DNA from: a virus
DNA length: 64,000 bases
Virus record (IMG/VR): IMGVR_UViG_3300046804_003518
Span: 96,001 to 160,000 of that record
Reading direction: 5' to 3' (one strand)
The notes beneath the pieces are model-generated. The model made no database searches. It was not told where the DNA came from and was given only the letters and a program-made list of their open reading frames with translations. The translations under genes and the position numbers were made by a program. Shown here piece after piece: positions 1,775 to 59,712 of this stretch (positions are counted from its first letter, which is position 1; the number at the start of each line of letters is the position of its first letter).

Positions 1775-2163
1775 ATCCGTTCGACTTTTTGAACGCCATC
1801 AATTATACAAAGATTGATGTCATATCTACCTCGGAAAATCCGGAAAAAGCCGAGAAATTGTACAACCCTTTCCTAACAAATCGTGGTTTATCGTATTTTG
1901 CGGATACTGTGCTGTATTGCAATGAAATGAACAGATACCACGAATTAGACAAAAAGCTCCAGTTTGATTTTCTTCTAAATAGTATTAGGAAGAACAAACG
2001 GTTCTCCAAATGGCATAAGGCTGAAGTAGACGAAGATACACAGCTTGTTAGTGACTACTATAAGTGCAACATTAGGAAGGCTAAAGAGATACTAACAATA
2101 CTATCTACAGAACAGCTTAGACAATTAAAAGAAAAAATGCATGTGGGTGGGGCGAACAAATGA
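1771..2163 (+). CDS. gp62: Clamp loader small subunit (gp62)
   Basis: MNPFDFLNAIN...YNPFLTNRGLSYF...KRFSKWHK; synteny between gp44 and regA. Confidence 0.88.
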   Translation: MNPFDFLNAINYTKIDVISTSENPEKAEKLYNPFLTNRGLSYFADTVLYCNEMNRYHELDKKLQFDFLLNSIRKNKRFSKWHKAEVDEDTQLVSDYYKCNIRKAKEILTILSTEQLRQLKEKMHVGGANK

Positions 2164-2585
2164 TTACAGTAGACAGTTTTATTGAGGTTACTCTAAAGCA
2201 GAACGATGACTTTCTAAAGGTTAAAGAGACATTAACCAGAATCGGCATTGCTTCCGAAAAGAACAAGACCCTCTATCAGTCTTGTCACATTCTCCATAAG
2301 AAAGGCAAATATTACATTGTACACTTCAAGGAGCTTTTTGCCCTTGATGGTAGACCATCGTCCTTAACAGATGATGATGTCGCAAGAAGAAATACTATCG
2401 TCAATCTACTTTCGGATTGGGGACTAGTAGGTCTCGTTGATGTGGAACGAACTAAAGAGCCAGTTGCGCCAATGAGACTAATCAAGGTCATTCCGTATAA
2501 GCAAAAGAACGAATGGCAATTGGTTACGAAGTATAACATTGGCCGATCAAAGAAAGAAGGCAATGCTAGTGAAGAAAGCAATTAA
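2160..2585 (+). CDS. regA: Translational repressor RegA
   Basis: DDFLKVKETLTRIGIAS...LYQSCHILHKKGKYYIVHFKELFALDG signature. Confidence 0.95.
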   Translation: MITVDSFIEVTLKQNDDFLKVKETLTRIGIASEKNKTLYQSCHILHKKGKYYIVHFKELFALDGRPSSLTDDDVARRNTIVNLLSDWGLVGLVDVERTKEPVAPMRLIKVIPYKQKNEWQLVTKYNIGRSKKEGNASEESN

Positions 2586-4082: not shown

Positions 4083-4400
4083 ATGGTCCACTACGAATAC
4101 GAAGCAAAGCATATGAGTTTCTATGAGATCAAAGAGGCGAATGGTTTTGTAAGTATGTGGTCAATCTATGATGGTGTCAATGACCCAAGTGAGCCATCAC
4201 CATACGAAGGCAAGACAATGTCCTATATGAACAATTGGGGCGAACCTGTAGAGGTGACGTTGCCTTCTGGTAAGTTGACATGGCTTCAGCTTTGGGCTGC
4301 TGCCGATAAGTGTATCAAACAGTCTGGCGATACACATCACATCTTCATCGAGGGGTTTAGGAAGAACGGTGGTATACTTGAATTGATTACAGGAAGTTGA
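4083..4400 (+). CDS. Hypothetical protein
   Basis: ORF track; C-terminal CIKQSGDTHHIFIEGF; coupled to the next gene. Confidence 0.65.
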   Translation: MVHYEYEAKHMSFYEIKEANGFVSMWSIYDGVNDPSEPSPYEGKTMSYMNNWGEPVEVTLPSGKLTWLQLWAAADKCIKQSGDTHHIFIEGFRKNGGILELITGS

Positions 4401-5797
4401 TGAGTGTAACAGCATCGCTTAAAGCAACAGACGGAATCTTTTCATCCTCACAGCGGACGCCACACAAAGTGGCCATCCGTTGTGGGGATCGCTCCGTTTC
4501 CTATTCTGAACTGACCAATAAGGTCAGACAAATCCAGCACTATTGTGTACATAAGCTCAAACTCAAGCCAGGTGATAGAGTATCGCTACTTGGTAACAAT
4601 TCAATAGAATACCTTGAGATATTAATCGCTCTAATTGATATTGGTGTTGGTGTGGTGACAATTAACCCAAAGTCTTCTCAGGAAGAGATTGACAGGTTGA
4701 GAAATGATTTGGTCACTTCAGTAAATTTTATTCTACGCGCCCCCCATATACTTTTTACTGAGGCCGGGGCTTATGAATCTACAGTAGATCTTTCGGAGGA
4801 ACTTCTAACTGACGAAGTAACCTTTGATTGGAATCTACCATCCACAATTATATTCTCTTCTGGTACAACGGGTAGATCCAAACCAATATTCATATCACAT
4901 AAGACAAGAGTTATGACATCTCTTTCTATGCCTCTGAGTTGGCGTTGGCAGCAAAATGATATCTACCTATCACTACCTTCTCTCTCTACGGGTGGAGGTA
5001 GTGGTTGTGCTCTTGCTGCTCTCTATATTGGAATGGAAGTTGTGATTCCTGAACAATACACAACCGAGTATCTTGTTGATATCATCAATAAGCGAAAGGT
5101 TACTACAATGGTAACAGTACCAGCACTTACCTATAAACTTGTCAACCAAAGATACAATCATGCAATCAATTCAGTAATATCAACTGCTGATGTTTTCCCT
5201 TATCAACTAAAAGTAGATGCCTACAACTTATGGCCAATGGCATTATATGAAACATATGCAACAACTGAGCATGGTCCAATAACATTACTCACACCTGATG
5301 ACCTTTGTAATAAACCAAACTCTGTTGGTCGTCCTTGTATTGGTTCAATGGTTAAAATCGTAGACGAACAAGGAGCTGGAGTTCCAACTAACACTCCAGG
5401 TAACATTGTAGCAACAACTCTCACACAAACAGGTGAAGGGTGGTTACCAACCAACGACATCGGATATCTTGATAGCGACAACTACCTTTACATTTTAGGT
5501 AGAGCTAATAATATGATTGTTACAAGAGGGTTCAATATACATCCTCTTGAAATTGAAGAAGCAATTAATCAGTATCCAGGAGTTGTTGAATCATGTGTTG
5601 TTGGTAAACAAAATGCCAGGTGGGGCGAGATACCTGTTGCCTTCATTGTTGGAGATGTAGATACTAGTTCGTTAAAGGCCTATCTCAGAAATAGGCTAGC
5701 AAAATATAAAGTTCCTCGTACATTTATCGTAGTTGAATCAATACCTAAGAATATTTTAGGTAAAATTGAACGCAACAAATTACGCGAACTATTATAA
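4400..5797 (+). CDS. Adenylate-forming (ANL superfamily) acyl-CoA synthetase / AMP-dependent ligase
   Basis: P-loop IIFSSGTTGRSK, YATTE (YGxTE-like), TNDIGYLD..YLYILGR, GFNIHPLEIEE, terminal LGKI lysine. Confidence 0.88.
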   Translation: MSVTASLKATDGIFSSSQRTPHKVAIRCGDRSVSYSELTNKVRQIQHYCVHKLKLKPGDRVSLLGNNSIEYLEILIALIDIGVGVVTINPKSSQEEIDRLRNDLVTSVNFILRAPHILFTEAGAYESTVDLSEELLTDEVTFDWNLPSTIIFSSGTTGRSKPIFISHKTRVMTSLSMPLSWRWQQNDIYLSLPSLSTGGGSGCALAALYIGMEVVIPEQYTTEYLVDIINKRKVTTMVTVPALTYKLVNQRYNHAINSVISTADVFPYQLKVDAYNLWPMALYETYATTEHGPITLLTPDDLCNKPNSVGRPCIGSMVKIVDEQGAGVPTNTPGNIVATTLTQTGEGWLPTNDIGYLDSDNYLYILGRANNMIVTRGFNIHPLEIEEAINQYPGVVESCVVGKQNARWGEIPVAFIVGDVDTSSLKAYLRNRLAKYKVPRTFIVVESIPKNILGKIERNKLRELL

Positions 5798-5862: not shown

Positions 5863-6348
5863 ATGACTAGACATACTCTAAGTCTATTCGATCAATTCGA
5901 TCGCGCGTGGCACAACCACTCAGTTGGCTTTGACAGAGCATTTGAAATTTTACAGCATGCTGCCAATGTCGCCAAGACCAACGACAACTTCCCACCCTAC
6001 TCTTTAGTTAAGAAGGACGACTTCAATTACGAATTGGAGATGGCTGTTGCCGGATTCAATGAAAAGGATTTGGAAATCGTTACTTCTAAAAACAGACTAT
6101 CTGTGGTTGGCATGAAGCCTGAGAAGGATGATCGTGAGTATATTGTGAAAGGAATTGCAGGACGCAGTTTCGCTCGTGAATTTGTTCTTGCTGATACTAT
6201 TGTTGTACGTGACGTGAACTTAATTGATGGTATTTTGACAATCAAGCTAGAAAATGTAGTACCTGAGGAGCAGAAGCCAAGGAAGATTACAATTGGTAAA
6301 AAGCCAATTGAGTCTAAGGCAGAACTACTTGTCGAAGAAGGCAAGTAA
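5863..6348 (+). CDS. hsp20: Small heat-shock protein (Hsp20/IbpA-like)
   Basis: NFPPYSLVK, LEMAVAGF, GIAGRSFAREF, LIDGILTIKL alpha-crystallin motifs. Confidence 0.93.
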   Translation: MTRHTLSLFDQFDRAWHNHSVGFDRAFEILQHAANVAKTNDNFPPYSLVKKDDFNYELEMAVAGFNEKDLEIVTSKNRLSVVGMKPEKDDREYIVKGIAGRSFAREFVLADTIVVRDVNLIDGILTIKLENVVPEEQKPRKITIGKKPIESKAELLVEEGK

Positions 6349-6354
6349 CTAATG

Positions 6355-6384
6355 GAAAGGGGGCTGCAATGGCCCCCTTTCTTT
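6355..6384 (+). terminator. Rho-independent terminator
   Basis: GAAAGGGGGC-loop-GCCCCCTTTC followed by TTT. Confidence 0.75.
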
Positions 6385-6390
6385 ATCAAA

Positions 6391-6431
6391 TATTAAGATT
6401 TGATTAAGGCTTGACGTCTCAATGTTAAATA
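6391..6431 (+). promoter_or_regulatory. Candidate Pho-box-like tandem repeat and promoter upstream of pstS
   Basis: TATTAAGATTTG ATTAAGGCTTG (11-bp period) then TGTTAAATA; same layout at 8821-8860. Confidence 0.45.
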
Positions 6432-6465: not shown

Positions 6466-7509
6466 ATGAAATCTAAGTTAGCAATTCTTTTTGCTTTATC
6501 ACTACTTGTTGTATCTCATGTTGCCCATGCCCAGTCGCGTGATGCAATTTCAATTGTGGGATCTTCAACAGTATATCCATTCACAACAACTGTAGCAGAA
6601 CAGTTTGGTCGTCAGGGAAAGTTTAAGACACCAAAGGTGGAGTCAACAGGTACGGGTGGCGGCATTAAGCTATTCTGTAACGGTGTTGGTCCACAGTTTC
6701 CTGATATTGTTAATGCTTCTCGTAGGATGAAGGCAGCTGAATTTCAAACCTGTGTTCAGAATGGCGTAAAGGAAATTCTTGAAGTCAAGATTGGATTTGA
6801 TGGACTTACGATTTCTGAATCAAAGAAGGGTAAGCTTAACGCTTTAACTCGTAAGGATGTTTATCTTGCTCTTGCCAAGCAAGTTCCAAACCCTTCTAAT
6901 CCAACTGAGTTGATTGCTAACCCATATACAACATGGAAGGATGTTAACCCATCTCTACCAGCTGTCAAGATTGAAGTTCTTGGTCCACCACCAACAAGTG
7001 GTACGAGAGATTCATTTGCTGAGCTATTCATGGAAGCTGGTTGCCAACAATATCCATGGATTAAGTCTCTCAAGGATATTGATGAAAAAAGATATAAGAG
7101 AATTTGTCAAACACTTCGTGAAGATGGTGCATATGTTGAAGCTGGTGAGAATGACAACTTAATTGTACAAAAGATTCAATCAAATCCAAATGCTCTTGGT
7201 ATTTTTGGCTTCTCATTTCTTGAAGAAAATATGGATAAGTTAAAGGGTCTTGAGATAGATGGCGTTGCTCCAACGTTTGAAACTATCGCTTCTACTAAAT
7301 ACCCTACATCTCGTCCACTTTTCATTTATGTCAAGAAAGCGCACATTGGTACGATTCCTGGCCTAAAGGAGTTTGTGGTTGAGTACGTGAGCGAAAAGGC
7401 TACCGGTGAGGAAGGTTATCTAACTGACCGCGGCCTTGTTGCTCTTGATAAGTCAGCACTATCGAAAGTGCGTGCTGATGTTAATAATATGAAAAACTTC
7501 AAGCCATAA
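6466..7509 (+). CDS. pstS: Phosphate ABC transporter periplasmic binding protein PstS
   Basis: Signal peptide; IVGSSTVYPF, ESTGTGGGIKLFC, GPPPTSGTRDSF, YPTSRPLFIYVK. Confidence 0.92.
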   Translation: MKSKLAILFALSLLVVSHVAHAQSRDAISIVGSSTVYPFTTTVAEQFGRQGKFKTPKVESTGTGGGIKLFCNGVGPQFPDIVNASRRMKAAEFQTCVQNGVKEILEVKIGFDGLTISESKKGKLNALTRKDVYLALAKQVPNPSNPTELIANPYTTWKDVNPSLPAVKIEVLGPPPTSGTRDSFAELFMEAGCQQYPWIKSLKDIDEKRYKRICQTLREDGAYVEAGENDNLIVQKIQSNPNALGIFGFSFLEENMDKLKGLEIDGVAPTFETIASTKYPTSRPLFIYVKKAHIGTIPGLKEFVVEYVSEKATGEEGYLTDRGLVALDKSALSKVRADVNNMKNFKP

Positions 7510-7534
7510 TTTCGTGGCGCAACAGGAGAAAGAA

Positions 7535-8713
7535 ATGCGTAAAGCAATTCAATCATTAGTTATTTTAGGATCATTGCTAGGTAGCGTTGCATACGGACAA
7601 AGTGCAGCTGATGTTCAAGCATCGGTTGATAATTTGTCAGATGTATTTGCTAAGGATGTAGCATCACGCTGGAAGTGGAAAGGTGACTTTCGTGTAAGAA
7701 ACGAAAACATCGATCAGGAACTTGCAGTTGAGCGCAACCGTACTAGAATGCGTGTTCGTCTTGGATTTGAAGCAGAAGTAAATCCAACTGTTAAGGCAGG
7801 CTTTCAGTTTGCTACAACAGAAAATGGAGATGCTCGTTCAACAAACCAGACCTTCAGTGATGTTAATTCTAAGAAAGCACTTGATCTTGATTTAGCATAT
7901 GTTGAGTGGGCACCAAACGCAACAACCAAGCTTACGCTTGGTAAGATGAAGCAACCTCTTGTCACAACGACATCTTACTTTGTCGATAAGGACATTAATC
8001 CAGAGGGTGCTACTCTTGCGTTTAATCACGCTCCAACTGGCGTATTTGTAAATGCTGCTTTGTTTGATCTAGTTGAGCGTAGCTCAGCTGGTGATTCAAC
8101 AGCACTAGCATGGCAAGTTGGCTTGCGTGGTAAATTGAATGATGACACAGGATATGTTCTAGCTGCTGGTGAAATGAATCACCACAATGTTCAGAACCTA
8201 GCTGTAATTCAATCAGGCGCTGCAGGTAGTTTCTTTGGTAACACAACTAAGACAACTGGTTGTGTAGCTGGAGTTACAACTTGTCTTGCAAATGAGTTTG
8301 AGGTCCGTAATGCTCTAGCTGAAGTAACAACAGTGGTCGCTGGCTATCCAGTAGTTGCTTTTGTTGATTGGGCAGAGAACACTAAGGCTGTAAAACTCAA
8401 CAAGGCTCTTGCATACGGAGTCACCCTTGGAAAAGCATCACTTCCAAATTCTTGGGAAGCTGGTGTTGTAATCCAAAGCGTTGAGAAGGACGCTCTATTT
8501 GGTCAGTGGATTGATTCTGACTATGCTGCTGGTAATACAGATGGTGATGGATATACACTTCGCGGTGCATATCAATTAGCCAAGAACTGGAAACTAAATG
8601 TTGCTTATCATATCAATAAGACAAACAATGATGTTCCAGTAGTTATTAGTGGACGTAATATTATTGATCGAGACTATAAGCGTCTACAACTTGACCTAAA
8701 CTATTCATTCTAA
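7535..8713 (+). CDS. Outer-membrane beta-barrel, putative porin (PstS-associated)
   Basis: AGGAG RBS; signal peptide; RTRMRVRLGF, DLDLAYVEW, alternating beta-strands; C-terminal LQLDLNYSF (terminal Phe, BAM signal). Confidence 0.8.
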   Translation: MRKAIQSLVILGSLLGSVAYGQSAADVQASVDNLSDVFAKDVASRWKWKGDFRVRNENIDQELAVERNRTRMRVRLGFEAEVNPTVKAGFQFATTENGDARSTNQTFSDVNSKKALDLDLAYVEWAPNATTKLTLGKMKQPLVTTTSYFVDKDINPEGATLAFNHAPTGVFVNAALFDLVERSSAGDSTALAWQVGLRGKLNDDTGYVLAAGEMNHHNVQNLAVIQSGAAGSFFGNTTKTTGCVAGVTTCLANEFEVRNALAEVTTVVAGYPVVAFVDWAENTKAVKLNKALAYGVTLGKASLPNSWEAGVVIQSVEKDALFGQWIDSDYAAGNTDGDGYTLRGAYQLAKNWKLNVAYHINKTNNDVPVVISGRNIIDRDYKRLQLDLNYSF

Positions 8714-8739
8714 TTGAACAAATTAGATTGTGTTGACTT

Positions 8740-8772
8740 GAAAGGGGGAGCGTTGACTCCCCCTTTCTTTTT
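8740..8772 (+). terminator. Rho-independent terminator
   Basis: GAAAGGGGGAG-CGTTGA-CTCCCCCTTTC followed by TTTTT. Confidence 0.75.
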
Positions 8773-8794
8773 GTATATACTATCCCTCTTTGAG

Positions 8795-8816
8795 GAAGGG
8801 GACCTAGGTCCCCTTC
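8795..8816. repeat. Perfect 22-bp palindrome
   Basis: GAAGGGGACCTAGGTCCCCTTC. Confidence 0.85.
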
Positions 8817-8820
8817 TTTA

Positions 8821-8860
8821 TATTAATTTTTTATTAAAGTATCTGTTTCTGTGTTAAATA
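8821..8860 (+). promoter_or_regulatory. Candidate Pho-box-like tandem repeat and promoter upstream of plcP-like gene
   Basis: TATTAATTTTTT ATTAA (11-bp period) ... TGTTAAATA, mirroring the pstS upstream region. Confidence 0.4.
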
Positions 8861-8881
8861 ATAACATACACAGGAGACCAT

Positions 8882-9631
8882 ATGAAGTACAAATCTATCT
8901 TTATATCCGATGTACATTTAGGTTCTAAAGGATGTAAAGCTGATTTGCTTTGCGACTTTCTCAAGCACAATACTTGTGAGCAGCTGTATCTTGTCGGCGA
9001 CATCATTGATGGTTGGAGACTAAGTAGGAAGTTTTACTGGCCTCAGTCTCATACAAACGTAATTAGAAGAATCCTTACCGCGGCTAAACGAGATACAAAG
9101 GTAATCTATGTGGCTGGTAATCACGACGAGGCTCTTCGTGGTCTTCTGCCATATGATATTCACTTTGGCAATATAGATCTTGTTAACCAATGCCGCCACC
9201 AGGCAATCAATGGTAAGACCTATATGGTAATCCATGGTGATATGTTTGATACAGCTCTTCGGAACAAGTTGGCCTGGCTATATCATTTTGGTGACATACT
9301 ATATAATATTCTACTGAGCATAAACGTTGTTGTTGGTAAGGTAAGGCAACGCTTTGGTCTACCTTATTGGAGTCTAAGCGCTTATTTAAAAAATAAGACG
9401 AAAGAAGCTGTTGCCTATATGAGCGACTTTGAGGTTCTAATTACCGACTACTGCCACAAACAGAAAGCGCATGGAGTGATATGTGGCCATGTTCATAAGG
9501 CAGATATAAAGATGATTGGTGAGGTTGAATATATGAATGATGGTGACTGGGTAGAGAGCTGTACTGCCCTAGTTGAGAACTATGAGGGTAAATGGGAAAT
9601 ACTAACGTGGCAAGAATTAAAATCATCTTAA
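8882..9631 (+). CDS. plcP: PlcP-like phospholipase C (LpxH2 / UDP-2,3-diacylglucosamine hydrolase-like metallophosphoesterase)
   Basis: FISDVHLG, LVGDIIDGW, YWPQSH, GNHDE, IHGD.FD, LPYWSLSAYLK, CGHVH, MNDGDWVESCTALVE. Confidence 0.8.
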   Translation: MKYKSIFISDVHLGSKGCKADLLCDFLKHNTCEQLYLVGDIIDGWRLSRKFYWPQSHTNVIRRILTAAKRDTKVIYVAGNHDEALRGLLPYDIHFGNIDLVNQCRHQAINGKTYMVIHGDMFDTALRNKLAWLYHFGDILYNILLSINVVVGKVRQRFGLPYWSLSAYLKNKTKEAVAYMSDFEVLITDYCHKQKAHGVICGHVHKADIKMIGEVEYMNDGDWVESCTALVENYEGKWEILTWQELKSS

Positions 9632-10635
9632 TCACCGACGCCTGGGAACCCCAGGTTAATGGTGTCGTGACAACATATAAAAATTTAATTAACTACCTAC
9701 CTGACAACGTCTCCGTAGACATAGTTCACCCAGCTTTGTTTGATTATTTTCCCTTCACACTATACAAAGGAATCAACATACCATTGTGTTCATTCAATAT
9801 GATGTATAACTTGATTGAAAGAAGAACAATGCACTACCAAATCCAAGGGTATAGTGTATCATACCATATAGCAACAGAAGGTGTTCTTGGCTATAAGGCC
9901 AAACGCGCTCTTGATGTAATGAAGAAACCATATACTACTGCCTACCACACAAAGTTTCCCGAGTTTCTGAAGTTAATGTTTGGTATTCCAGTTTTATTTA
10001 CATCGTGGTACTTCAACTGGTTCCATAAAAAGTCAAAGGCTGTCATGTGTTCCTCACAGTCTGATTCAATGACTCATTCAGATTGGCAGACAGTTGTTCT
10101 TGGTAAGGGTTATGCCAGCCATTTCTCGTTCAAGGACCATCGTCACAAACATGATATAAATTTACTATACGTTGGTAGAGTTAGTCACGAAAAGAATATA
10201 GAGGATTTTTGTAAACTTGACCTTGATGGTTGGACAGACTGTAACGCAAAGGTATATAAAATTATTGTTGGTGATGGTCCTGCAAGAAAATCATTAGAGA
10301 AAAAATATCCTGGAATTAGGTTTGTTGGATATAAATTTGGGAAAGACCTTGCTTCCTATTACCAGAATGCTGATGTATGTGTGTTCCCAAGCAAAGTTGA
10401 TACATTTGGAATCACGATACTTGAGTCAATGGCTTGTGGAACACCAGTTGCTGGTTATCCTGTGACCGGTCCAATTGACCAAATCATTAACGGTGTCAAT
10501 GGTTATGTTGATCAAGATCTTGAGTCGGCCGTTGGTCGCTGTCTACTTCTGGAACGAGATCTTGTAGCAAATTCAGTTAGGCATATATCGTGGAAGCAAT
10601 CAGCCCAACAGTTTGTTGACTTTATAGCTGGTTGA
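9592..10635 (+). CDS. GT4 glycosyltransferase, Agt-like glycosyl-diacylglycerol synthase
   Basis: ITDAWEPQVNGVV, HIATEG.LG, YHTKFPE, YVGRVSHEKNIEDF, VGDGP, FPSKVDTFGITILESMACGTPV; overlaps the plcP-like gene. Confidence 0.8.
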   Translation: MGNTNVARIKIILITDAWEPQVNGVVTTYKNLINYLPDNVSVDIVHPALFDYFPFTLYKGINIPLCSFNMMYNLIERRTMHYQIQGYSVSYHIATEGVLGYKAKRALDVMKKPYTTAYHTKFPEFLKLMFGIPVLFTSWYFNWFHKKSKAVMCSSQSDSMTHSDWQTVVLGKGYASHFSFKDHRHKHDINLLYVGRVSHEKNIEDFCKLDLDGWTDCNAKVYKIIVGDGPARKSLEKKYPGIRFVGYKFGKDLASYYQNADVCVFPSKVDTFGITILESMACGTPVAGYPVTGPIDQIINGVNGYVDQDLESAVGRCLLLERDLVANSVRHISWKQSAQQFVDFIAG

Positions 10636-10660
10636 CTGTTACCATCGTTTAATGTATACT
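10632..10660 (+). promoter_or_regulatory. sigma70-type promoter
   Basis: TTGACT-N17-TATACT. Confidence 0.7.
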
Positions 10661-10687
10661 CCCTCCTATCGTAGGAGGGACGTTATC

Positions 10688-11023
10688 ATGTCAACAAGGC
10701 GTAATTTTTTTAAGTATCTTGGACTTGCTGGTGGTGTAGCAGTAGGTGGTCCTGTCGCCGCTGCAGCTATCATTCCTAAAGGTAAACCAAAGCACATTGA
10801 ACAACTTGATGGCGGATCGCACCTGCAATTGCGAGCAACATATGGCGAGAAGGTTGGCCTCGGCACAATAAACCCAACTAACAAACTAACGGTTTTTAGT
10901 CATCAGACGCAAGAGTTTGTTCCTGGAACTGTTGAGCAGGTTGATGTTTCGTTCAAGCCAGGTCCTGATGGTGAATTGTACTTGAAAGTTAATGGGAAAT
11001 GGCGTAAAGTAGTTACTGAATGA
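10688..11023 (+). CDS. Small protein with twin-arginine (Tat) signal peptide
   Basis: GGAGG RBS; MSTRRNFFKYLGLAGGVAVGGPVAAAA (S/T-R-R-x-F-F/L-K). Confidence 0.75.
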   Translation: MSTRRNFFKYLGLAGGVAVGGPVAAAAIIPKGKPKHIEQLDGGSHLQLRATYGEKVGLGTINPTNKLTVFSHQTQEFVPGTVEQVDVSFKPGPDGELYLKVNGKWRKVVTE

Positions 11024-13566
11024 GCAAGTTCTATACAAATGTAAGTATCCGAGGGAATAAGATTCTCCTTCGTGGCTATGAGGATGGTCGTAGAGTTCAT
11101 ACTGACATCCCATACCAACCTTTTTGTTTCCAACGATCGAGCAATCCAAATGCTCCGTATAAGACTATCGATGGTTATCCAGCCGATAGAAAGGACTTCG
11201 AATCTATCAATGACATGATGGATTACATGAAGATGTATGAGGGTGTAGAAGGAATTAAACTCTACGGAATGACATCCAAGAGTTCTCTCATCTATCCATT
11301 CATCCACGAATACTATCCTGGTGAGATTCAATACGATGCCTCTTTGATGAACATCGTTCACCTTGATATCGAGGTCGCGGCTGATGAAGGATTCCCTAAC
11401 ATCGATGAAGCTGATAAGGCACTAACTGCTATCACTATTAAGGTTAAGGATAGGTACTACACTTTTGGTTGTGGTGACTATACACCTACAGCTGACAACA
11501 TCATGTACGCCAAGTGTAAGAACGAACGCGACTTGATTATGAAGTTCTTAACTCTTTGGGATTCTCCTCTTGTTGATCCAGACATCGTAACTGGCTGGAA
11601 CGTAGAGGGGTTCGATATTCCATATCTCGTCAATAGAATCGATAGAGTATTCAATGACGAAGGTAAGATGTCAAAGAAACTCTCACCTTGGAAGATTGTC
11701 GACGACAAGGAAATCATTATGAGAGGGTCTGGTAAGACTCTCAAGGCAAAGACGCTGAGAGGAATCTCAGTGCTTGACTATTTGCAGCTCTATAGAAAGT
11801 TTACATACTCTGATACAGAAAGCTATTCTCTTAACCATATTGCTCACCTCGAGCTTGGTGAGAAGAAGATTGACTACTCTGAGTATGAAAGTCTGTTTGA
11901 TCTTTATAAGCACGACTTCCAAAAGTTCATTGAGTATAATATCCACGACGTTACTCTCGTAAGCCAGCTTGATGATAAGATGAAGCTTATCGATCAGGTT
12001 CTTGCTATTGCATATGATGCGAAGGTTGACTATATCGATACTCTTCGTACAGTGCGCATGTGGGATATGATTATCCACAACTACCTAATCGATAACAATA
12101 TTGTTGTTCCTCTTTCGAAGAACGAAGAAGAACTTAAACTTGTTAGAGAAGAGAAGGATCAACCAATTAAGGGTGCTTATGTAAAAGATCCTAAACCTGG
12201 AATGTATAAGTACGTTGTCTCATTTGACTTGACATCTCTATATCCATCGCTGATCATGCAGTATAACATCTCGCCTGATACTAAGATGAATAAGGTTGAT
12301 CTTACGCCAGAAGATTGTTTGGACAATACTGGTTCGTTCCAGATGGCTAAGGACGATGCAAAGAGTCTCGACTATACACTTTGTGCTAATGGTACGATGT
12401 ATAGAAAAGATAAGCTCGGGTTCCTGCCAGCGCTGATGGAAAAGGTCTTCGCCGATAGAAAGAAGTATAAGAAGCTAATGCTTGAAGCAAAGCAGAAGTA
12501 TGAACTATCGAAAGATCCTGAAGATGAAAAGAAATACGTTCAGTATAACAATATGCAGATGGCAAAGAAGATTCAGCTGAATAGCTGTTACGGTGCTTTG
12601 TCTAATATCTACTTCAGATTCTTTGATACAGATCTAGCTGAAGCAATCACACTATCTGGCCAGGTATCGATTCGTTGGATGCAAGCGAAGATGAATGAGT
12701 TCTTGAATAAGACTCTCAAGACTGACAATGTCGATTATGTTATTGCTGTTGATACTGACTCTCTTTATATTACTCTTGATAAGTTTGTTGATAAGGTATA
12801 CAATGGCAAGGTACCAGAAAGAGATAAAGTCATTCGTATGCTAGATAAGGCTTGTGATGAAGTCTTCCAGCCATTCATCGAAAAGAGTTATGATGACCTA
12901 GCTAACCATATGTTGATCTATAGTCAGCGTATGCAGATGAAGCGAGAGTCAATTGCCGATAAAGGTATCTGGGTAGCGAAGAAGAGATACATCTTGAATG
13001 TCTTTAACGAAGAAGGTGTTCAGTATGAGAAGCCAAAGCTGAAGATGAAAGGCATTGAAGCTGTTAAGTCTTCAACTCCTGCCAAGATCAAGGAAGCAAT
13101 TAAGAAGTCGCTTGACATTATTATGAATGGCACAAAGGATGATTTTACTAAGTATGTGGAAGACTTCAAGCAAGAGTTTGATACTCTACCGTTTGAAGAT
13201 GTGGCATTCCCTAGAAGTTGTCAAGGCGTAACCAAACATAAGATTGGTGGTAAGGCAATTCCAATTCATGTGAGAGGCGCACTCATTTACAACCATTTCA
13301 TAAATAACTTAGGACTTGACAAAAAGCACAATAAGATTCAGGATGGAGATAAGATTAAGTTCTGCTACTTGAGAACACCTAATCCATTCTCGACGAATGT
13401 TATATCATCTCCAGGTGCCTTGCCAAAGCAATTCAATATCGATCGTTATATTGATCACGATACACAATTTGAAAAGTCTTTCATTGAGCCGATGAAGTCA
13501 ATCACGGACAACATTGGTTGGGATCTTGGACAAAAGCAATTAACTCTAGAAGACATGTTCGGGTAA
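11020..13566 (+). CDS. gp43: Family B DNA polymerase (gp43)
   Basis: Exo LDIEV, TGWNVEGFDIPY; pol SFDLTSLYPS, KIQLNSCYG, AVDTDS. Confidence 0.97.
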   Translation: MSKFYTNVSIRGNKILLRGYEDGRRVHTDIPYQPFCFQRSSNPNAPYKTIDGYPADRKDFESINDMMDYMKMYEGVEGIKLYGMTSKSSLIYPFIHEYYPGEIQYDASLMNIVHLDIEVAADEGFPNIDEADKALTAITIKVKDRYYTFGCGDYTPTADNIMYAKCKNERDLIMKFLTLWDSPLVDPDIVTGWNVEGFDIPYLVNRIDRVFNDEGKMSKKLSPWKIVDDKEIIMRGSGKTLKAKTLRGISVLDYLQLYRKFTYSDTESYSLNHIAHLELGEKKIDYSEYESLFDLYKHDFQKFIEYNIHDVTLVSQLDDKMKLIDQVLAIAYDAKVDYIDTLRTVRMWDMIIHNYLIDNNIVVPLSKNEEELKLVREEKDQPIKGAYVKDPKPGMYKYVVSFDLTSLYPSLIMQYNISPDTKMNKVDLTPEDCLDNTGSFQMAKDDAKSLDYTLCANGTMYRKDKLGFLPALMEKVFADRKKYKKLMLEAKQKYELSKDPEDEKKYVQYNNMQMAKKIQLNSCYGALSNIYFRFFDTDLAEAITLSGQVSIRWMQAKMNEFLNKTLKTDNVDYVIAVDTDSLYITLDKFVDKVYNGKVPERDKVIRMLDKACDEVFQPFIEKSYDDLANHMLIYSQRMQMKRESIADKGIWVAKKRYILNVFNEEGVQYEKPKLKMKGIEAVKSSTPAKIKEAIKKSLDIIMNGTKDDFTKYVEDFKQEFDTLPFEDVAFPRSCQGVTKHKIGGKAIPIHVRGALIYNHFINNLGLDKKHNKIQDGDKIKFCYLRTPNPFSTNVISSPGALPKQFNIDRYIDHDTQFEKSFIEPMKSITDNIGWDLGQKQLTLEDMFG

Positions 13567-21710: not shown

Positions 21711-21926
21711 ATGGAATACAAAGACTTAACTGAAGAAGAAATGGATAAATATGAGTCTGCGCTTGTTGCCATTGAGGATAAAATCCGTATAATACGCAGC
21801 CTAGGTCTCGAGAAGCAATTACTCAAGGACCTCAACCAAGATATCCCTCTTGAACTAAACATACTAATCGCTACTGCAGTGAGGATGAACATTGGACGAG
21901 AACAACTACGTAACTTCTACTGGTAA
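21711..21926 (+). CDS. Hypothetical protein
   Basis: GGAG RBS; ORF track. Confidence 0.6.
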   Translation: MEYKDLTEEEMDKYESALVAIEDKIRIIRSLGLEKQLLKDLNQDIPLELNILIATAVRMNIGREQLRNFYW

Positions 21927-22878
21927 GAATGGAATCACAGCTACTATTATTCAAGATTCCACTTGCTATAGAACAGGAACAAGAATAACAACATTTGAGC
22001 TAGAGTACCCAAGATTCATTCATAGTGAGTTTATGACTCACCGTATGCTCTCCAGGAACGCTGCTTCCTCGAGGGCAATTCCTGTTTCCAAGTTGATTAA
22101 GTTGGTAGAAACAAAGCCAGCAAGACCAATTGAATGGGGTAAGAATATTAAAGGAATGCAGGCTAAGGAACAACTTGATTGGCCAGAGTTGTTACAGGCT
22201 ACTACGCTTTGGGACAATACTGCTAGAGCTACATGCGCTGCTGCCAGGAAGTTTGATGATCTCAAACTCCACAAACAGATTTCAAATAGAATTCTTGAGC
22301 CTTATCAAATGATCAAGGTAGTATGTACTGCCACAACATATGATAACTTCTTCCACCTCCGTAAGCATCCTGATGCTCAACCTGAGATCAGAGAACTGGC
22401 TACTGTAATGTGGAAAGCTCTAAACCAAAGCCGTCCCCTTTCTGTTGGACCAGGCGAATGGCATGTACCATACATTCACCGTGAGGATACAGAACTAGGG
22501 CTTCAGTACTACATCTGGGAAGAACAAGACAACCTAGAGAAGCAGCTCATAAAGACATACTTAACAGCTGAGCAAGCAATTATGATTTCAGCCTCTTGTT
22601 GTGCTCAGGTTTCCTATAGAATTCTAAACACGGATATTGAAAAGGCAAGAGATATCTTCCAGCGTCTAGTTGAATCTAAACCTGTTCATGCCTCACCTTT
22701 AGAACACCAGGCAACACCAATGAGCAATTTAACTAATAGTTGTAACAGTTGTGATAGTTGGGAGAAGGGTGTTACGCATTCTGATAGAAAAGGCCGTACT
22801 TGGTCTGGTAACTTTCTTTACTGGATTCAGCATCGCCAACTAATCAATGATCATGTTGTTTGGGAATATGAGGAATAG
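21892..22878 (+). CDS. thyX: Flavin-dependent thymidylate synthase-like protein (ThyX/Thy1)
   Basis: FMTHRMLSRNAASSRAIP (RHRxxS-like), HKQISNRILEP, HPDAQPEI, HASPLEH. Confidence 0.75.
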   Translation: MDENNYVTSTGKNGITATIIQDSTCYRTGTRITTFELEYPRFIHSEFMTHRMLSRNAASSRAIPVSKLIKLVETKPARPIEWGKNIKGMQAKEQLDWPELLQATTLWDNTARATCAAARKFDDLKLHKQISNRILEPYQMIKVVCTATTYDNFFHLRKHPDAQPEIRELATVMWKALNQSRPLSVGPGEWHVPYIHREDTELGLQYYIWEEQDNLEKQLIKTYLTAEQAIMISASCCAQVSYRILNTDIEKARDIFQRLVESKPVHASPLEHQATPMSNLTNSCNSCDSWEKGVTHSDRKGRTWSGNFLYWIQHRQLINDHVVWEYEE

Positions 22879-22881
22879 TGT

Positions 22882-23067
22882 ATGCGACTTAGTAATGTTA
22901 TTGAAATGAGTTTGATTGAAGCGGAGAATGAAGGCCTTACAAAACACGAAGCAATTGAATATGCAGCAAGAGCAAACAGCGTAAGTGTTGACGTTGTTCG
23001 AGATGTATATGAAAATCTTATATGCCTTCAGAACAAAATTGCAGATAGGTTAGGTATTAGATTATGA
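22882..23067 (+). CDS. Hypothetical protein
   Basis: GAGG RBS; ORF track. Confidence 0.6.
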   Translation: MRLSNVIEMSLIEAENEGLTKHEAIEYAARANSVSVDVVRDVYENLICLQNKIADRLGIRL

Positions 23068-24083
23068 TTCAAGATGATCCCAAGTTAGACTATAGTGATG
23101 TTCTAATCGTTCCGAAGTTTTCTGATATTGATAGTAGGTCCAAGGTAGTAGTAGACTATAATCCTATCATTGCATCTAACATGGATGGTGTTGGCACATT
23201 CTCTATGGCAAGGGCCATGTACTTACATGGCGCCCACACTGCTATCGTCAAGCACTACACTCTTGACCAGTGGATTCAATTCATTAACGAATGCCTGAAT
23301 GAGGATCACGTTGGCCCTCTTGAGCATTCCTATATCTCTACTGGTATTAGTAAGGATGACTATAACCTAACAACCTCTATCATTAAAGAGATTAAGCAAC
23401 GAACTGGCCTTGTAGCTAATATTTGTGTTGATGTTGCTAACGGCTATATGGAACAGTTCTATGACTTTGTTGCTAGGCTAAGGGATGTGAATCCATATAG
23501 TACAATTATGGCTGGTAGCGTTGTTACACCAAAGGCCGTAACAAGACTAGAGCAAGCTGGTGCCAACTTAATTAAAGTTGGTATTGGTTCTGGCGCCGTC
23601 TGTACAACTCGTATTAAGACAGGTATTGGGTATCCTCAGCTGAGTGCTGTTATGGAGTGTGCCGAGGCTTGTGTTAAGTCTGATATTGTTGCTGATGGTG
23701 GTATCACAAACCCAGGCGATGTCTGTAAGGCAATTGGTGCTGGCGCTAAGTATGTCAAACTTGGTTCTATGCTAGCAGGACACGATGAAGGTGAGCAGCC
23801 TATCATTAATAACAAAGTTGTCTTCTATGGTATGAGTTCTAGAACAGCTCAGGTTAAGCATAAGGGTGAGCTTGCTGCCTATAGATCTTCTGAAGGTAGA
23901 ACTGTTTCTATTCCATATAAGGGTCCTGTGAAGAACACAATACTTGATATCCTTGGTGGTATTAGATCGTGTTGTGCTTATGTTGGAGCTGATAGAGTAT
24001 CTAAGCTCAGTATGCATACAGAGTTTATTAGGGTCAATAACCAGTACAATAGGTCAATGGAACCACACACAGTATCACTCTAA
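23064..24083 (+). CDS. guaC: GMP reductase
   Basis: KLDYSDVLI, IIASNMDGVGTF, DVANGY, KVGIGSGAVCTTR..TGIGYPQLSAVMEC, ADGG, FYGMSS, YRSSEG. Confidence 0.9.
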   Translation: MIQDDPKLDYSDVLIVPKFSDIDSRSKVVVDYNPIIASNMDGVGTFSMARAMYLHGAHTAIVKHYTLDQWIQFINECLNEDHVGPLEHSYISTGISKDDYNLTTSIIKEIKQRTGLVANICVDVANGYMEQFYDFVARLRDVNPYSTIMAGSVVTPKAVTRLEQAGANLIKVGIGSGAVCTTRIKTGIGYPQLSAVMECAEACVKSDIVADGGITNPGDVCKAIGAGAKYVKLGSMLAGHDEGEQPIINNKVVFYGMSSRTAQVKHKGELAAYRSSEGRTVSIPYKGPVKNTILDILGGIRSCCAYVGADRVSKLSMHTEFIRVNNQYNRSMEPHTVSL

Positions 24084-24139: not shown

Positions 24140-25057
24140 ATGGCTAATCTTAGCGCCAAAGAGATCAGAAAGTATGATTACAGACCTGAAGTCTTTATTA
24201 AAAAGATAAAGGAAAAGTCTCCTTTTGAAATCACTGGTGGCAAGAAAGTTACATTGATTGCTCCAAAAAATTATGAGAAGATTCTGAGATCTGGGACTGC
24301 AGTTCAGCTTAATGAACTACGCTTTGCATCAACGTCTGGAACAGCGTATAAGTTATCTGACTTTGTAAAGACACCTGAGTTTGGTGGCAAGGGAGAAGGA
24401 GCATCTACAGCAAAAGAAGATGCTGCTTTAATGTCCCTAAGAGATCAAATTAAGTCTGCAAAGAAGAAAGAAGGGTCAGCAACTATAAATATAAGAGTAG
24501 GAACTACAACATATGAAGTTGCAGATGCTGCTTCTACACCTGGAACTCCAAAGTCGGATTTCCATTTACTTGATGCTAATGGAAAAGAGATAGTTTGGAT
24601 ATCCCATAAAGATGGAAGCACCGAAAGGGACTTTCAACAATGGGGCGGTATGTCGGAGTCTAAAGAGCCAAAGATATACAGCCATCCTGAGTCTCAACAA
24701 TTTATTAAGGATATGTTGAAGCTGTATCCTAAAGGTCTTCCCAATGCAACAACTGTTGCTAGGAAGATTAAAAATTTCCAGTTAAAAAATATGGCTGTAT
24801 ATGGAAATGAGTTTGGTGGTGAATATAGTAGACAAAATGTGACACTAATGCTTCAAGGTTCAGTTAAGCTAAGTAAGAATGGTAATGTGTATAAGATAAC
24901 AGCAACACATACACATGATAATGGCGAAACAATGAAGGGTGGTTATGAACCAGTGTTCATGGCAATCTATAAAGGTGACAGAAGCGACTTTGGTATCAAG
25001 GGAACAAGAGTCGTTATTGCACCTTACGGATGTAGAAAAATAAAAGGAATGGTTTAA
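24140..25057 (+). CDS. Hypothetical protein, possible PD-(D/E)xK restriction-like fold
   Basis: TPKSDFHL...VWISHKDG...FQQWGG resembles a D...S/E-x-K nuclease core. Confidence 0.5.
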   Translation: MANLSAKEIRKYDYRPEVFIKKIKEKSPFEITGGKKVTLIAPKNYEKILRSGTAVQLNELRFASTSGTAYKLSDFVKTPEFGGKGEGASTAKEDAALMSLRDQIKSAKKKEGSATINIRVGTTTYEVADAASTPGTPKSDFHLLDANGKEIVWISHKDGSTERDFQQWGGMSESKEPKIYSHPESQQFIKDMLKLYPKGLPNATTVARKIKNFQLKNMAVYGNEFGGEYSRQNVTLMLQGSVKLSKNGNVYKITATHTHDNGETMKGGYEPVFMAIYKGDRSDFGIKGTRVVIAPYGCRKIKGMV

Positions 25058-26259
25058 TGAGCTTTATTCAGTACCTAAAAGAAACAGTAGATGATGAAAG
25101 TAAGCTAATCCACCTAAAGCATGTGGGTGAGCATGCTATTGATTCTGGTACCGAAGGTTTCAAGCACGCATTCCACACTCTACAAGATGTCCATGATGCT
25201 ATTCATGGCTCAGCCACATCGCCAACTAAGACAACAATTAAGTATGATGGCTCACCATCCGTAATCTTTGGCCATCATCCAAAGACTGGTAAGTTCTTTG
25301 TTGCGTCAAAGTCTGCCTTTAATAAAGAACCAAAGATCAATTACTCACATGAAGATATTGAGAAGAACCATGGCCATGCACCTGGCTTGGTTGAGAAGCT
25401 AAAGGCTGCGTTTACACATCTTCAAAAGACTGCTCCAAAGAAGGGTGTGTTCCAAGGCGATATCATGTACACCAAAGAGCATGGCTGGAATGCAGCTGGC
25501 TCAAATGATGTTAAGGACCACGGTGGCAAGTATCACTTTACACCTAATACTATTACATATTCTCAAGACAAGAATTCTAAGGAAGGCAAGAAGATTGCCA
25601 AGGCTAAAATTGGCGTCGCAGTCCACACAAAGTATGAAGGGGATGATCTAGAGAACATGAAAGCTCATTATGGCTTTAATGTCCATGATGAGGATAGTGG
25701 GTTTAAGCATCACCCAGATGTCCATCTGCTACCTACCCATGTAGTCCACCCAGCACAACCTCCTAAGTCTACTAAGTTCCAGCATCACATGAAGAAGGCT
25801 GTAGAAGAGTTTGAAGGGGCTACAGAAGAGACTCATAATGCTATTGCAGGCCATAGAGTTAACCTAAAGACATATATCAATAGCACAGTTAGAACTGGTG
25901 CCAAGAGATCAATTAGCGGTTACCTAGCATGGCTGAGAGCCAAACACCAGGGCGAAGTTGAGAAGCTAAAGTCACCAGCTGGTAAGGCAAAAAGACAGCA
26001 AGCCATGGATGAAGACCTAGCCCATGTTCAAAAGAACAAGCACCATTTCCAGCGTATTCTAAATATCCATGACCATCTAGAAAATGCAAAAGATGAATTG
26101 GTCCACCATCTTTCGGCTTTGGAGCACCATGGATATGAGCATTCAATCCACGGTAAGCCTTCAAAACCAGAAGGGTTTGTGGCAATCAGAAACAATAGAC
26201 CAACTAAGCTAGTCCATAGAGCAGACTTCTCGAGGGCTAACTTCTTAAAGGTTCGCTAA
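25057..26259 (+). CDS. T4-like phage hypothetical protein with a ligase-like KxDG motif
   Basis: HLKHVGE, TIKYDGSPSVIFG, FFVASKSAFNK, VFQGDIMY, PEGFV, TKLVHRADFSRANF. Confidence 0.7.
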   Translation: MSFIQYLKETVDDESKLIHLKHVGEHAIDSGTEGFKHAFHTLQDVHDAIHGSATSPTKTTIKYDGSPSVIFGHHPKTGKFFVASKSAFNKEPKINYSHEDIEKNHGHAPGLVEKLKAAFTHLQKTAPKKGVFQGDIMYTKEHGWNAAGSNDVKDHGGKYHFTPNTITYSQDKNSKEGKKIAKAKIGVAVHTKYEGDDLENMKAHYGFNVHDEDSGFKHHPDVHLLPTHVVHPAQPPKSTKFQHHMKKAVEEFEGATEETHNAIAGHRVNLKTYINSTVRTGAKRSISGYLAWLRAKHQGEVEKLKSPAGKAKRQQAMDEDLAHVQKNKHHFQRILNIHDHLENAKDELVHHLSALEHHGYEHSIHGKPSKPEGFVAIRNNRPTKLVHRADFSRANFLKVR

Positions 26260-59307: not shown

Positions 59308-59369
59308 TTGGTACTGGCTTCTTGGTATTAGTATTTGGTGCAACTACATTTATAGGTTCATTAAAAATT

Positions 59370-59655
59370 AATGGTAGTAAACTGACGACTAAAGGTGTTC
59401 TGGACGGGGTTTCAATACCCCCATCTCCACCAAATTTAACGTGTGTGTCACACTTTACCAGAGTTGACGACTCTGGCACGGACTACGGGGATGACAGGTT
59501 TCGACAGGGCAAGTAATAAACCGACGGCTACCAGTGAGGCGACTGACTTAATCAGCGCAAACAAAGTAAACGCAAACGATGATGTTTACAACATGGCTCT
59601 AGCTGCCTAAGGCACTAGATTACCAGAGTTGACCGCTTGGTAACAGAAAGGTCGG
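59370..59655 (+). ncRNA. ssrA: Circularly permuted (two-piece) tmRNA
   Basis: Acceptor piece: T-arm GGGGT-TTCAAT-ACCCC and CATCTCC-A-CCA ending at 59432. Coding piece starts GGGGATG at 59487, giving the G3.U70 alanine pair. Tag GCA AAC GAT...GCT GCC TAA = ANDDVYNMALAA (59572-59610). P2-type pairings CAGGGCA/TGTTCTG and GCTACCA/TGGTAGT. Outer boundaries approximate. Confidence 0.9.
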
Positions 59656-59683
59656 AGGCGGCAGCTTTCGCTGCCGCCTTTTT
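59656..59683 (+). terminator. Rho-independent terminator
   Basis: AGGCGGCAGC-TTTC-GCTGCCGCCT followed by TTTT. Confidence 0.85.
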
Positions 59684-59712
59684 CTTCCAACTGCATAAAT
59701 GGAGGTAACAAC

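Follow-up and report, generated by a model that had tools for sequence, protein, structure and literature searches.

Whether a lytic phage can draw the phosphorus of its DNA from the membrane of the cell that it infects is the question raised by a 64,000-nucleotide (nt) window, positions 96,001 to 160,000 of the 188,323-bp IMG/VR virus record IMGVR_UViG_3300046804_003518. Four co-oriented genes on the + strand of this window encode a PstS-type periplasmic phosphate-binding protein (6466..7509, 347 amino acids (aa)), an outer-membrane beta-barrel porin (7514..8713, 399 aa), a PlcP-type metallophosphoesterase (8882..9631, 249 aa) and an Agt/GTcp-type glycosyltransferase of family GT4 (9592..10635, 347 aa), here called agt, which shares its first 40 nt with the end of plcP. 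The original prediction had described four such adjacent genes with the last two overlapping, and a check of the open reading frames (ORFs) confirmed this arrangement. Our analysis indicates that they probably form a phage-borne phosphate-stress island, organized as two transcription units located between regA and gp43, that would capture phosphate and renovate membrane lipid.

The record has a CheckV completeness of 100% and is that of a T4-like (Straboviridae/Kyanoviridae-type) myophage, encoding a T4-type major capsid protein gp23 (6e-150), a portal protein gp20 (3.4e-171) and a gp43/gp45/gp44/gp62/regA/uvsX/gp41 replication module. The T4 replication cluster of the window runs in the order gp45/gp44/gp62/regA (158-2585), an island of ~8.4 kb, gp43 (11020-13566), UvsX and the gp41 helicase, the island being composed of small ORFs, an acyl-CoA ligase and Hsp20, and then pstS, porin, plcP and agt. 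We considered the possibility that host DNA ended up in a viral contig through an error of assembly or binning, as the genes of the block are of bacterial type and some false positives exist in IMG/VR. This explanation, which the original prediction had named as a way in which it could fail, is contradicted by the present analysis: the complete 188-kb genome encodes gp23 and gp20 and has T4 core genes on both sides of the block, the GC content is even at ~0.40, and the viral clades described below are distinct from every bacterial relative (at most 60% identity). The same hsp20-cassette-polB junction is moreover repeated on independent contigs from other samples (L012, L013, L014, L017, L041 and L054), the polB of which is 74-99% identical to that of the window, and 93-99% identical in five of the six. 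Because these junctions recur, a misassembled host fragment can be discarded as a negligible prospect, and the phage origin of the genes stands.

The phosphoesterase (Pfam Metallophos and Metallophos_2) belongs to the calcineurin type and carries the complete set of dimetal motifs (DxH, GDxxD, GNHD, HGD and GHxH), with the dimetal-site residues D10, H12, D40, N80, H81, H118, H203 and H205 invariant in the alignment; the motifs GNHD, YWSLS and GDWVESCT quoted by the original prediction in favor of PlcP are all present. In databases and viral surveys, such proteins are annotated as LpxH, the lipid A enzyme UDP-2,3-diacylglucosamine pyrophosphatase, which would assign the phage protein to lipopolysaccharide (LPS) biosynthesis. 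Joint Genome Institute (JGI) product names and the annotation of Pelagibacter phage Mosig accordingly read UDP-2,3-diacylglucosamine hydrolase, and a profile search places LpxH nearest among solved structures (E 1.7e-8), a phmmer search of a single PlcP sequence against the PDB having returned nothing. LpxH (PDB 5K8K, 6PH9, 5B49) indeed shares the calcineurin-like fold and the dimetal motifs of the phage protein, but is a distinct paralogue with a different genomic partner. The phage ORF reaches only 41.7 bits with the NCBIfam LpxH model NF003743 (cut-off 134) and 27.2 bits with TIGR01854 (cut-off 190), thus failing both equivalog models by a wide margin. In four of the five bacterial genomes inspected, which were those holding a relative of the phage phosphoesterase, true LpxH scores 267-296 bits, whereas the PlcP paralogues of these genomes, with which the phage protein groups, score 34-57 bits as it does. 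GNHD is found in all 163 PlcP-like sequences collected from viruses and bacteria, and GNRD in all four LpxH. Alignments by blastp to bacterial PlcP-type proteins cover the full length at 256-307 bits and 46-57% identity, as opposed to partial matches of 21-34 bits to true LpxH, and a branch with a support of 100 splits LpxH from PlcP in a tree with LpxH as the outgroup. Because the equivalog scores, the GNHD motif, the split in the tree, the blastp results and the synteny with agt all agree, we classify the phosphoesterase as PlcP-type and not LpxH, as had been claimed; the LpxH reading is very improbable and is already contradicted by these data. The enzyme is predicted to be a Pho-regulated phospholipase C that would act on phosphatidylethanolamine, phosphatidylglycerol or phosphatidylcholine to yield diacylglycerol (DAG).

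In bacteria, the plcP-agt enzymes and their pathway are well established. When one genome per species was scanned, at least 596 bacterial relatives of the phage PlcP were found, and the bacterial counts given here concern the best 80 of them, which are at most 60% identical to it. In 64 of these 80 loci, a homologue of the window GT4 lies directly downstream of plcP on the same strand. Such loci are found in Pelagibacteraceae single-cell genomes, Erythrobacter, Sphingomonas, Caulobacteraceae (Caulobacter, Phenylobacterium), Paraburkholderia, Burkholderia latens and B. dolosa. The Pelagibacteraceae single-cell genomes served as stand-ins for SAR11, their GT4 numbering matching the published GTcp residues, and B. 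latens and B. dolosa as stand-ins for the Burkholderia cepacia complex, their plcP-agt locus being one that we take to be orthologous to BCAL2364/2365. The glycosyltransferase of the “type 2” plcP neighbourhood of SAR11 HTCC7211 and Erythrobacter makes monoglucosyl diacylglycerol (MGDG) and glucuronic acid diacylglycerol (GADG) (Sebastian et al. 2016, PMC4796936), and mutants of the B. cenocepacia plcP-agt-dagK operon (BCAL2364-2365), which has been demonstrated by experiment, lose those glycolipids (PMC13691135). The phage pair is homologous to this bacterial operon (PB7211_983/PB7211_960 in SAR11 HTCC7211; BCAL2364-2365), with which it has in common the order (plcP then agt), the enzyme families, the catalytic motifs and an upstream repeat resembling a Pho box. 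It differs from it in being encoded by a T4-like lytic phage, in the 40-nt gene overlap, in its separate viral clades, in the lack of dagK, in being joined to a pstS-porin unit, in its G171/K172 instead of T/R in the DAG pocket, and in its sequence, PlcP being 46-60% and Agt 34-42% identical to the bacterial proteins.

The GT4 (Glycos_transf_1, 3.5e-22) carries the N-terminal motif ITDAWEPQVNGVV from which an Agt-type enzyme had originally been proposed. The motifs GRVAxEKN and FPSxTDTFG define the GTcp clade together with a His104-Asp256 dyad, and 14 of its residues are essential for activity (bioRxiv 10.1101/2021.03.25.437072). The corresponding signature in the phage protein consists of GRVSHEKN, FPSKVDTFG (with Asp rather than Glu), H119 and D270. 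Alignment to a SAR11 homologue, the numbering of which reproduces the published GTcp residues, indicates that 12 of the 14 essential residues are kept, namely G24, the counterparts of GTcp G82 and G85, H119, R196, K201, D270, T271, F272, G273, E278 and W334. Bacterial Agt-type proteins match the phage GT4 over its full length at 181-251 bits. The clade signatures and the plcP-adjacent homologues together back the Agt-type identity, and the enzyme is predicted to be a glucosyl/glucuronosyl-diacylglycerol synthase that would transfer glucose or glucuronate from a UDP-sugar to DAG.

We next turn to the distribution of these genes in viruses. At least 148 IMG/VR contigs encode a relative of the phage PlcP, and our viral locus counts are based on the best 80, which are 56-87% identical to it and thereby nearer than any bacterial sequence. 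The search for viral plcP-GT4 synteny called for by the original prediction revealed the pair, with GT4 immediately after plcP, on 44 of these 80 contigs, an adjacent pstS of the same type on 14 and the porin on 10; gp23 is present on four of the five large contigs tested (178-327 kb). In a quick-search maximum-likelihood tree rooted on LpxH, all 44 non-redundant viral PlcP fall into one clade with a Shimodaira-Hasegawa-like approximate likelihood ratio test (SH-aLRT) value of 99, which includes the protein of the isolate Pelagibacter phage Mosig as well as three bacterial sequences, the other 69 bacterial sequences being outside. In the GT4 tree, built by the same quick search, 27 viral GT4 stand on one side of a branch (SH-aLRT 94) beside a gammaproteobacterial genome bin and bacterial sequences. 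Because the viral PlcP and GT4 form clades of their own, plcP-agt looks like an old viral acquisition that diversified within phages and not like a recent capture from a host. The three bacterial PlcP inside the viral clade (L087, L088 and L089) come from two Hyphomonas and one Pseudomonadota genome bin, and none has an adjacent GT4; in L088, the neighbours of plcP on a contig of 1.3 Mb encode an HNH endonuclease, an HhH-GPD protein and a Suv3-like helicase, not an obvious prophage setting. On a 357-kb contig, a PlcP (P0038) 79% identical to that of the window is part of a PstS - PlcP - GT4 - (ORF) - fatty-acid desaturase series, with DUF6267 and many small ORFs; this contig may be that of a jumbo phage with an extra lipid gene beside the plcP-GT4 pair.

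Comparison of near-identical phages reveals how the island varies. While all four genes are present in the window, L041 has the cassette hsp20-plcP-pstS-porin-orf123-polB without GT4, L012 and L014 have acs-hsp20-plcP-agt-polB without pstS or porin, and L013 has plcP-agt-orf123-polB. Because near-identical phages differ in cassette content, the gap between regA/hsp20 and gp43 is a plastic island in which phosphate-stress modules get shuffled.

The only homologue in a cultured phage is Mosig_00120 (“putative UDP-2,3-diacylglucosamine hydrolase”) of Mosig EXVC030M (MT647606.1), which is 55.7% identical to the window PlcP. Like the window gene, it belongs to the viral PlcP clade, lies beside pstS and is preceded by a direct repeat, TTAAC-N6-TTAAC; unlike the window, Mosig has neither GT4 nor porin. 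A 72-aa Mosig ORF after plcP was considered as a possible GT4 remnant and rejected as unrelated. Our literature search found no paper describing a phage plcP-agt pair and none linking plcP to viruses or auxiliary metabolic genes, and papers on pelagimyophages (PMC7029224), the Mosig genome and the Sargasso virome do not mention plcP. The novelty that the original prediction attributed to the phage-borne pair is therefore retained, with two restrictions: the pair is not a one-off, being widespread in uncultured T4-like phages, and plcP itself was already present in an isolate under the name of LpxH.

What may tie the lipid genes to phosphate is found upstream of them. Two tandem intrinsic terminators (8740-8767 and 8791-8820, + strand; terminator scan) stand between pstS-porin and plcP-agt, and because they split the block, it consists of two predicted transcription units. 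Each unit is preceded by a Pho-box-like promoter on the + strand. The first (6392..6431) is made of ATTAAGATTTGATTAAGG, which contains two ATTAA 11 bp apart, followed after 16 nt by GTTAAATA, and ends 35 nt before the pstS ATG. The second (8822..8860) is made of ATTAATTTTTTATTAAAG, likewise with two ATTAA 11 bp apart, followed after 15 nt by GTTAAATA, and ends 22 nt before the plcP ATG. An AGGAG ribosome-binding site follows GTTAAATA in both units. ATTAA-N6-ATTAA occurs exactly twice on both strands of the whole 188-kb genome, once before each unit, and the composite ATTAA-N6-ATTAA-N15/16-GTTAAATA is found genome-wide only at 6392 and 8822. A terminator hairpin after hsp20 (~6355-6382, + strand) was read by eye in the sequence and is not in the list of the terminator scanner.

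This repeat layout is not particular to one phage. Of 50 non-redundant upstream regions of viral plcP, 25 contain KTMA-N7-KTMA, that is a [G/T]T[A/C]A core with an 11-bp period, whereas every other spacing occurs 0-5 times and the count in shuffled sequences averages 3.4 and never exceeds 9; the same 11-bp peak is seen in 18 of 73 bacterial plcP upstream regions compared to ~2. Because repeats with this spacing are enriched upstream of viral plcP, our results suggest that both units are under the control of the host PhoB, predicted to bind the Pho-box-like direct repeats, and by analogy the 11-bp layout suggests the architecture of PhoB-dependent promoters. The repeat core is GTCAT-N6-GTCAT, with the classical Pho-box half-site, in L008 and L010, and GTAAT in many viral contigs, and the TTAAC repeat of Mosig matches TTAAC/GTAAC repeats before plcP in SAR11 single-cell genomes. 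Within 120 nt upstream of plcP, the core varies by lineage (GTCAT, GTAAC, GTAAT, TTAAT, TTAAC, TTAAG in L008, L010, L011, L019, L025, L045, L067, L075 and L001), L025 has three repeats in succession, and the -10-like element upstream of viral plcP reads TATATAAT or xTAAATA. These lineage-specific cores may be Pho boxes matched to the host and, as such, usable for host prediction.

The first unit encodes the exported proteins. PstS (Pfam PBP_like_2, 2.5e-50, 172 bits) has a Sec signal peptide (…SHVAHA/QS) and is 47.6% identical to the pstS product of Mosig, with no cyanophage match among phage records. The porin (Porin_5, 5e-23, 81.9 bits) has a probable true start ATG at 7535, a signal peptide and a C-terminal Phe, and its AlphaFold2 model is a ~16-strand barrel (predicted local distance difference test score (pLDDT) of 70). 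It has no match in 50,697 phage records and no PHROG family, and homologues 80-88% identical are abundant in metagenomes; on the longer metagenome contigs inspected, the porin lies beside pstS in a phage-like setting (ribonucleotide reductase, GP88, runs of small co-oriented ORFs). The identities of these two genes conform to the proposal that PstS and porin import phosphate, while the phosphate role of the porin, a generic Porin_5 barrel of 16 strands, is a suggestion drawn from its context, and any selectivity for phosphate is putative. No signal peptide is found on PlcP or on the GT4, so that export signals predict an envelope location for the products of the first unit and a cytoplasmic one for those of the second.

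Altogether, these observations allow us to propose how the island would operate. Under phosphate starvation, PhoB/PhoR of the host would switch on both units via the Pho-box-like repeat of each promoter. The exported binding protein and the outer-membrane channel of the first unit would raise the phosphate capture of the infected cell. The overlapping genes of the second unit, which are probably translationally coupled, would provide two cytoplasmic, membrane-associated enzymes. Working on the cytoplasmic side of the inner membrane, the PlcP-type Mn/dimetal phosphoesterase would remove the phosphorylated head group of host glycerophospholipids and leave DAG, which the Agt-type GT4 would turn into phosphorus-free glycolipids using UDP-glucose or UDP-glucuronate, such that the membrane would stay intact until lysis. 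Host enzymes (phosphatases) would then dephosphorylate the freed phospho-alcohols, and the phosphate would feed nucleotide synthesis for the 188-kb genome, each copy of which demands 376,646 phosphorus atoms. Phosphorus would thus probably be drawn by the phage from the host membrane and might flow from lipid into phage DNA.

The two enzymes could also act as proposed for another benefit, in that remodelling of the inner membrane or of the envelope might block superinfection, adjust the timing of lysis or stabilize a stressed virocell, phosphate release being a side effect. Passages in three papers (PMC9938194, PMC9804370, PMC9457565) describe host lipid remodelling as altering phage attachment and predator interactions, and the pelagimyophage literature takes phage glycosyltransferases as surface modifiers (PMC7029224). 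Yet PlcP and Agt, having no signal peptides, would act on the cytoplasmic membrane and not on the surface receptor layer, plcP-agt shares its unique upstream element with pstS-porin, and plcP is linked to pstS in 14 of the 80 viral loci. Because of this common element and this linkage, we favor phosphorus economy as the benefit for the phage and view envelope remodelling as a rather unlikely one.

Several features weigh against the proposed phosphate capture and lipid renovation. The identity of the GT4 to bacterial Agt-type enzymes, only 34-42%, is below the 46-58% found within the characterised Agt/GTcp clade (bioRxiv 10.1101/2021.03.25.437072), and for this reason we treat it as a putative divergent viral branch of this clade. 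Of the GTcp DAG-pocket residues H104, T162, R163 and W320, the first and last are kept as H119 and W334, and the other two are changed to G171 and K172 in the GT4 subclade of the window, although other viral subclades keep T-R. Furthermore, 36 of the 80 viral contigs, some of which are truncated, carry plcP without GT4, so that the glycolipid step is dispensable for many phages. Taken with the further sugar-metabolism genes in which the window is rich, these facts would suit a scheme in which PlcP alone scavenges phosphorus and the GT4 glycosylates a target other than DAG (LPS or capsule sugars, phage DNA or protein). We find this scheme unlikely given that the 40-nt overlap with plcP is kept in relatives, that viral GT4 group with plcP-adjacent bacterial GT4, and that the clade-specific Asp of FPSxxDTFG, H119 and W334 are kept. 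On the side of regulation, the repeat core is TTAA and not the classical CTGTCAT, and 15-16 nt separate the repeat from the -10-like element, compared to ~10 nt in E. coli pstS. Because a single mismatch distinguishes GTTAAATA from the T4 late-promoter motif TATAAATA, of which the genome has 25 copies, it is possible that GTTAAATA is part of a phage-specific promoter. PstS scores 159.8 bits with TIGR02136, under the cut-off of 206.6, and the porin 19.0 bits with Porin_O_P (PF07396), under the cut-off of 20.9. The best PDB match of the porin model by Foldseek is the general porin OmpM1 (template modelling (TM) scores 0.62/0.75), OprP (2O4V) ranking 11th with a query-normalized TM score (TMq) of 0.52; an OprO/P-like phosphate-selective porin was dropped as a candidate because of the sub-threshold Porin_O_P score and a fold search that pointed only to generic porins. 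Finally, no phosphatase able to free the phosphate of the head groups was identified within the block, and the activity of the viral PlcP and GT4 members is deduced from their sequences.

Phage phosphate-stress genes are a textbook case, and those of cyanophages (pstS, phoA) are established as being controlled by the host PhoB; they have so far been limited to uptake or scavenging from outside the cell (pstS, phoA, phoH). Zeng and Chisholm are said to have reported in 2012 that these genes are induced in cyanomyophages through the host PhoR/PhoB. The window resembles this precedent in that Pho-regulon genes of host type are found in a T4-like phage downstream of a host-type Pho-box-like repeat, an arrangement that would ease the phosphorus shortage of replicating phage. 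It differs from it by a PstS of another subfamily and by the addition of the porin and of a membrane-lipid pathway of two enzymes, for neither of which a counterpart turned up in isolate phage families. What is new here is a probable extension of the phage phosphate-stress auxiliary module to membrane-lipid renovation, a reading that is largely supported by our results. If true, it would represent a viral resource takeover of a new kind, in which phosphorus is taken from the host's own membrane while the sugar-lipid step keeps that membrane intact. A small aquatic cell contains roughly a few million phospholipids; since each phage genome requires 376,646 phosphorus atoms, such a membrane would be worth, as a rough estimate, about ten phage genomes.

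Our reading also corrects a systematic misannotation of viral “lpxH” as LPS biosynthesis. Viral surveys list “lpxH” under this heading as an auxiliary gene of surface water or lakes (PMC10653327, PMC9611531), and this gene is probably the present plcP under the wrong name. Testable markers for linking uncultured phages to hosts are offered by putative host-matched Pho boxes and by modules gained or lost among near-identical phages, and lipid renovation by phages offers a way of tying viral infection to lipid signatures of phosphorus limitation. More tentatively, plcP-agt, along with pstS-porin, may form an old and virus-specific lineage that circulates as a mobile “phage Pho regulon” among T4-like phages of different hosts, each copy having a Pho box matched to its host (TTAAG/TTAAT here, TTAAC in Mosig, GTCAT/GTAAT in others); membrane phospholipid would be turned into phage DNA, and part of the glycolipid and “lpxH” signals of phosphate-poor waters would be virus-driven. 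We regard this wider proposal as possible, at a level that falls a little short of an even balance.

The conserved left flank of the insertion site is formed by gp45 (158-832, Pfam gp45-slide_C), gp44 (836-1774, Gp44_lid), gp62 (1771-2163, Phage_clamp_A) and the T4 regA translational regulator (2160..2585, + strand, Translat_reg 5.2e-46). Two genes upstream of pstS, a TTG-started ORF (4397..5797, + strand, 466 aa) encodes an AMP-forming acyl-CoA ligase (FadD/MenE-like; Pfam AMP-binding 3.7e-48), which matches the NCBIfam long-chain-fatty-acid--CoA ligase model at 2.3e-78, under its cut-off. The versions found in the same place in L012, L014 and L017 are only 38-39% identical to it, and it may be a fatty-acid activation gene tied to the lipid theme. 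The following gene encodes an Hsp20/IbpA-type small heat-shock protein (5863..6348, + strand; Pfam HSP20 2.1e-16, phrog_432 4.7e-39). The late-promoter motif TATAAATA lies ~70 nt before it, at window position 5793 (genome 101793); the counts of this motif in the genome, 23 on the + strand and 2 on the - strand, fit the one-directional gene layout. Between agt and gp43, a 123-aa ORF (10652..11023, + strand) has a twin-arginine-type signal (RRNFFKYLGLAGG; TIGR01409 TAT signal, 0.002) and no family match, and is kept just before polB in L013 (61%) and L041 (87%) according to tblastn. The conserved right flank is the T4 gp43 family-B DNA polymerase (11020..13566, + strand, DNA_pol_B 1.7e-29), which is 48% identical to those of S-RIM8 and other cyanomyophages.

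The nearest bacterial relatives are at most 60% identical for PlcP and 50% for PstS. The sole hint of a host comes from a circularly permuted (two-piece) tmRNA at 59341-59701 (+ strand, tag ANDDVYNMALAA), which scores 135 bits with the Rfam model tmRNA_permuted and 120.7 bits with beta_tmRNA (gathering score 84), and may thus indicate a betaproteobacterial host; the betaproteobacterial plcP loci inspected are of high GC and lack a similar box. A reading of the block as a defence system was dropped, as a PADLOC scan gave no match and the Pfam GT4-conflict match is under its cut-off. Further metabolic genes lie downstream on the + strand, encoding ThyX (21892-22878), a protein of the inosine monophosphate dehydrogenase (IMPDH)/GMP-reductase type (23064-24083), a DUF6267 protein (25057-26259), and a 748-aa fusion of a cytidyltransferase-like region with a pterin-4a-carbinolamine dehydratase domain (28130-30376).

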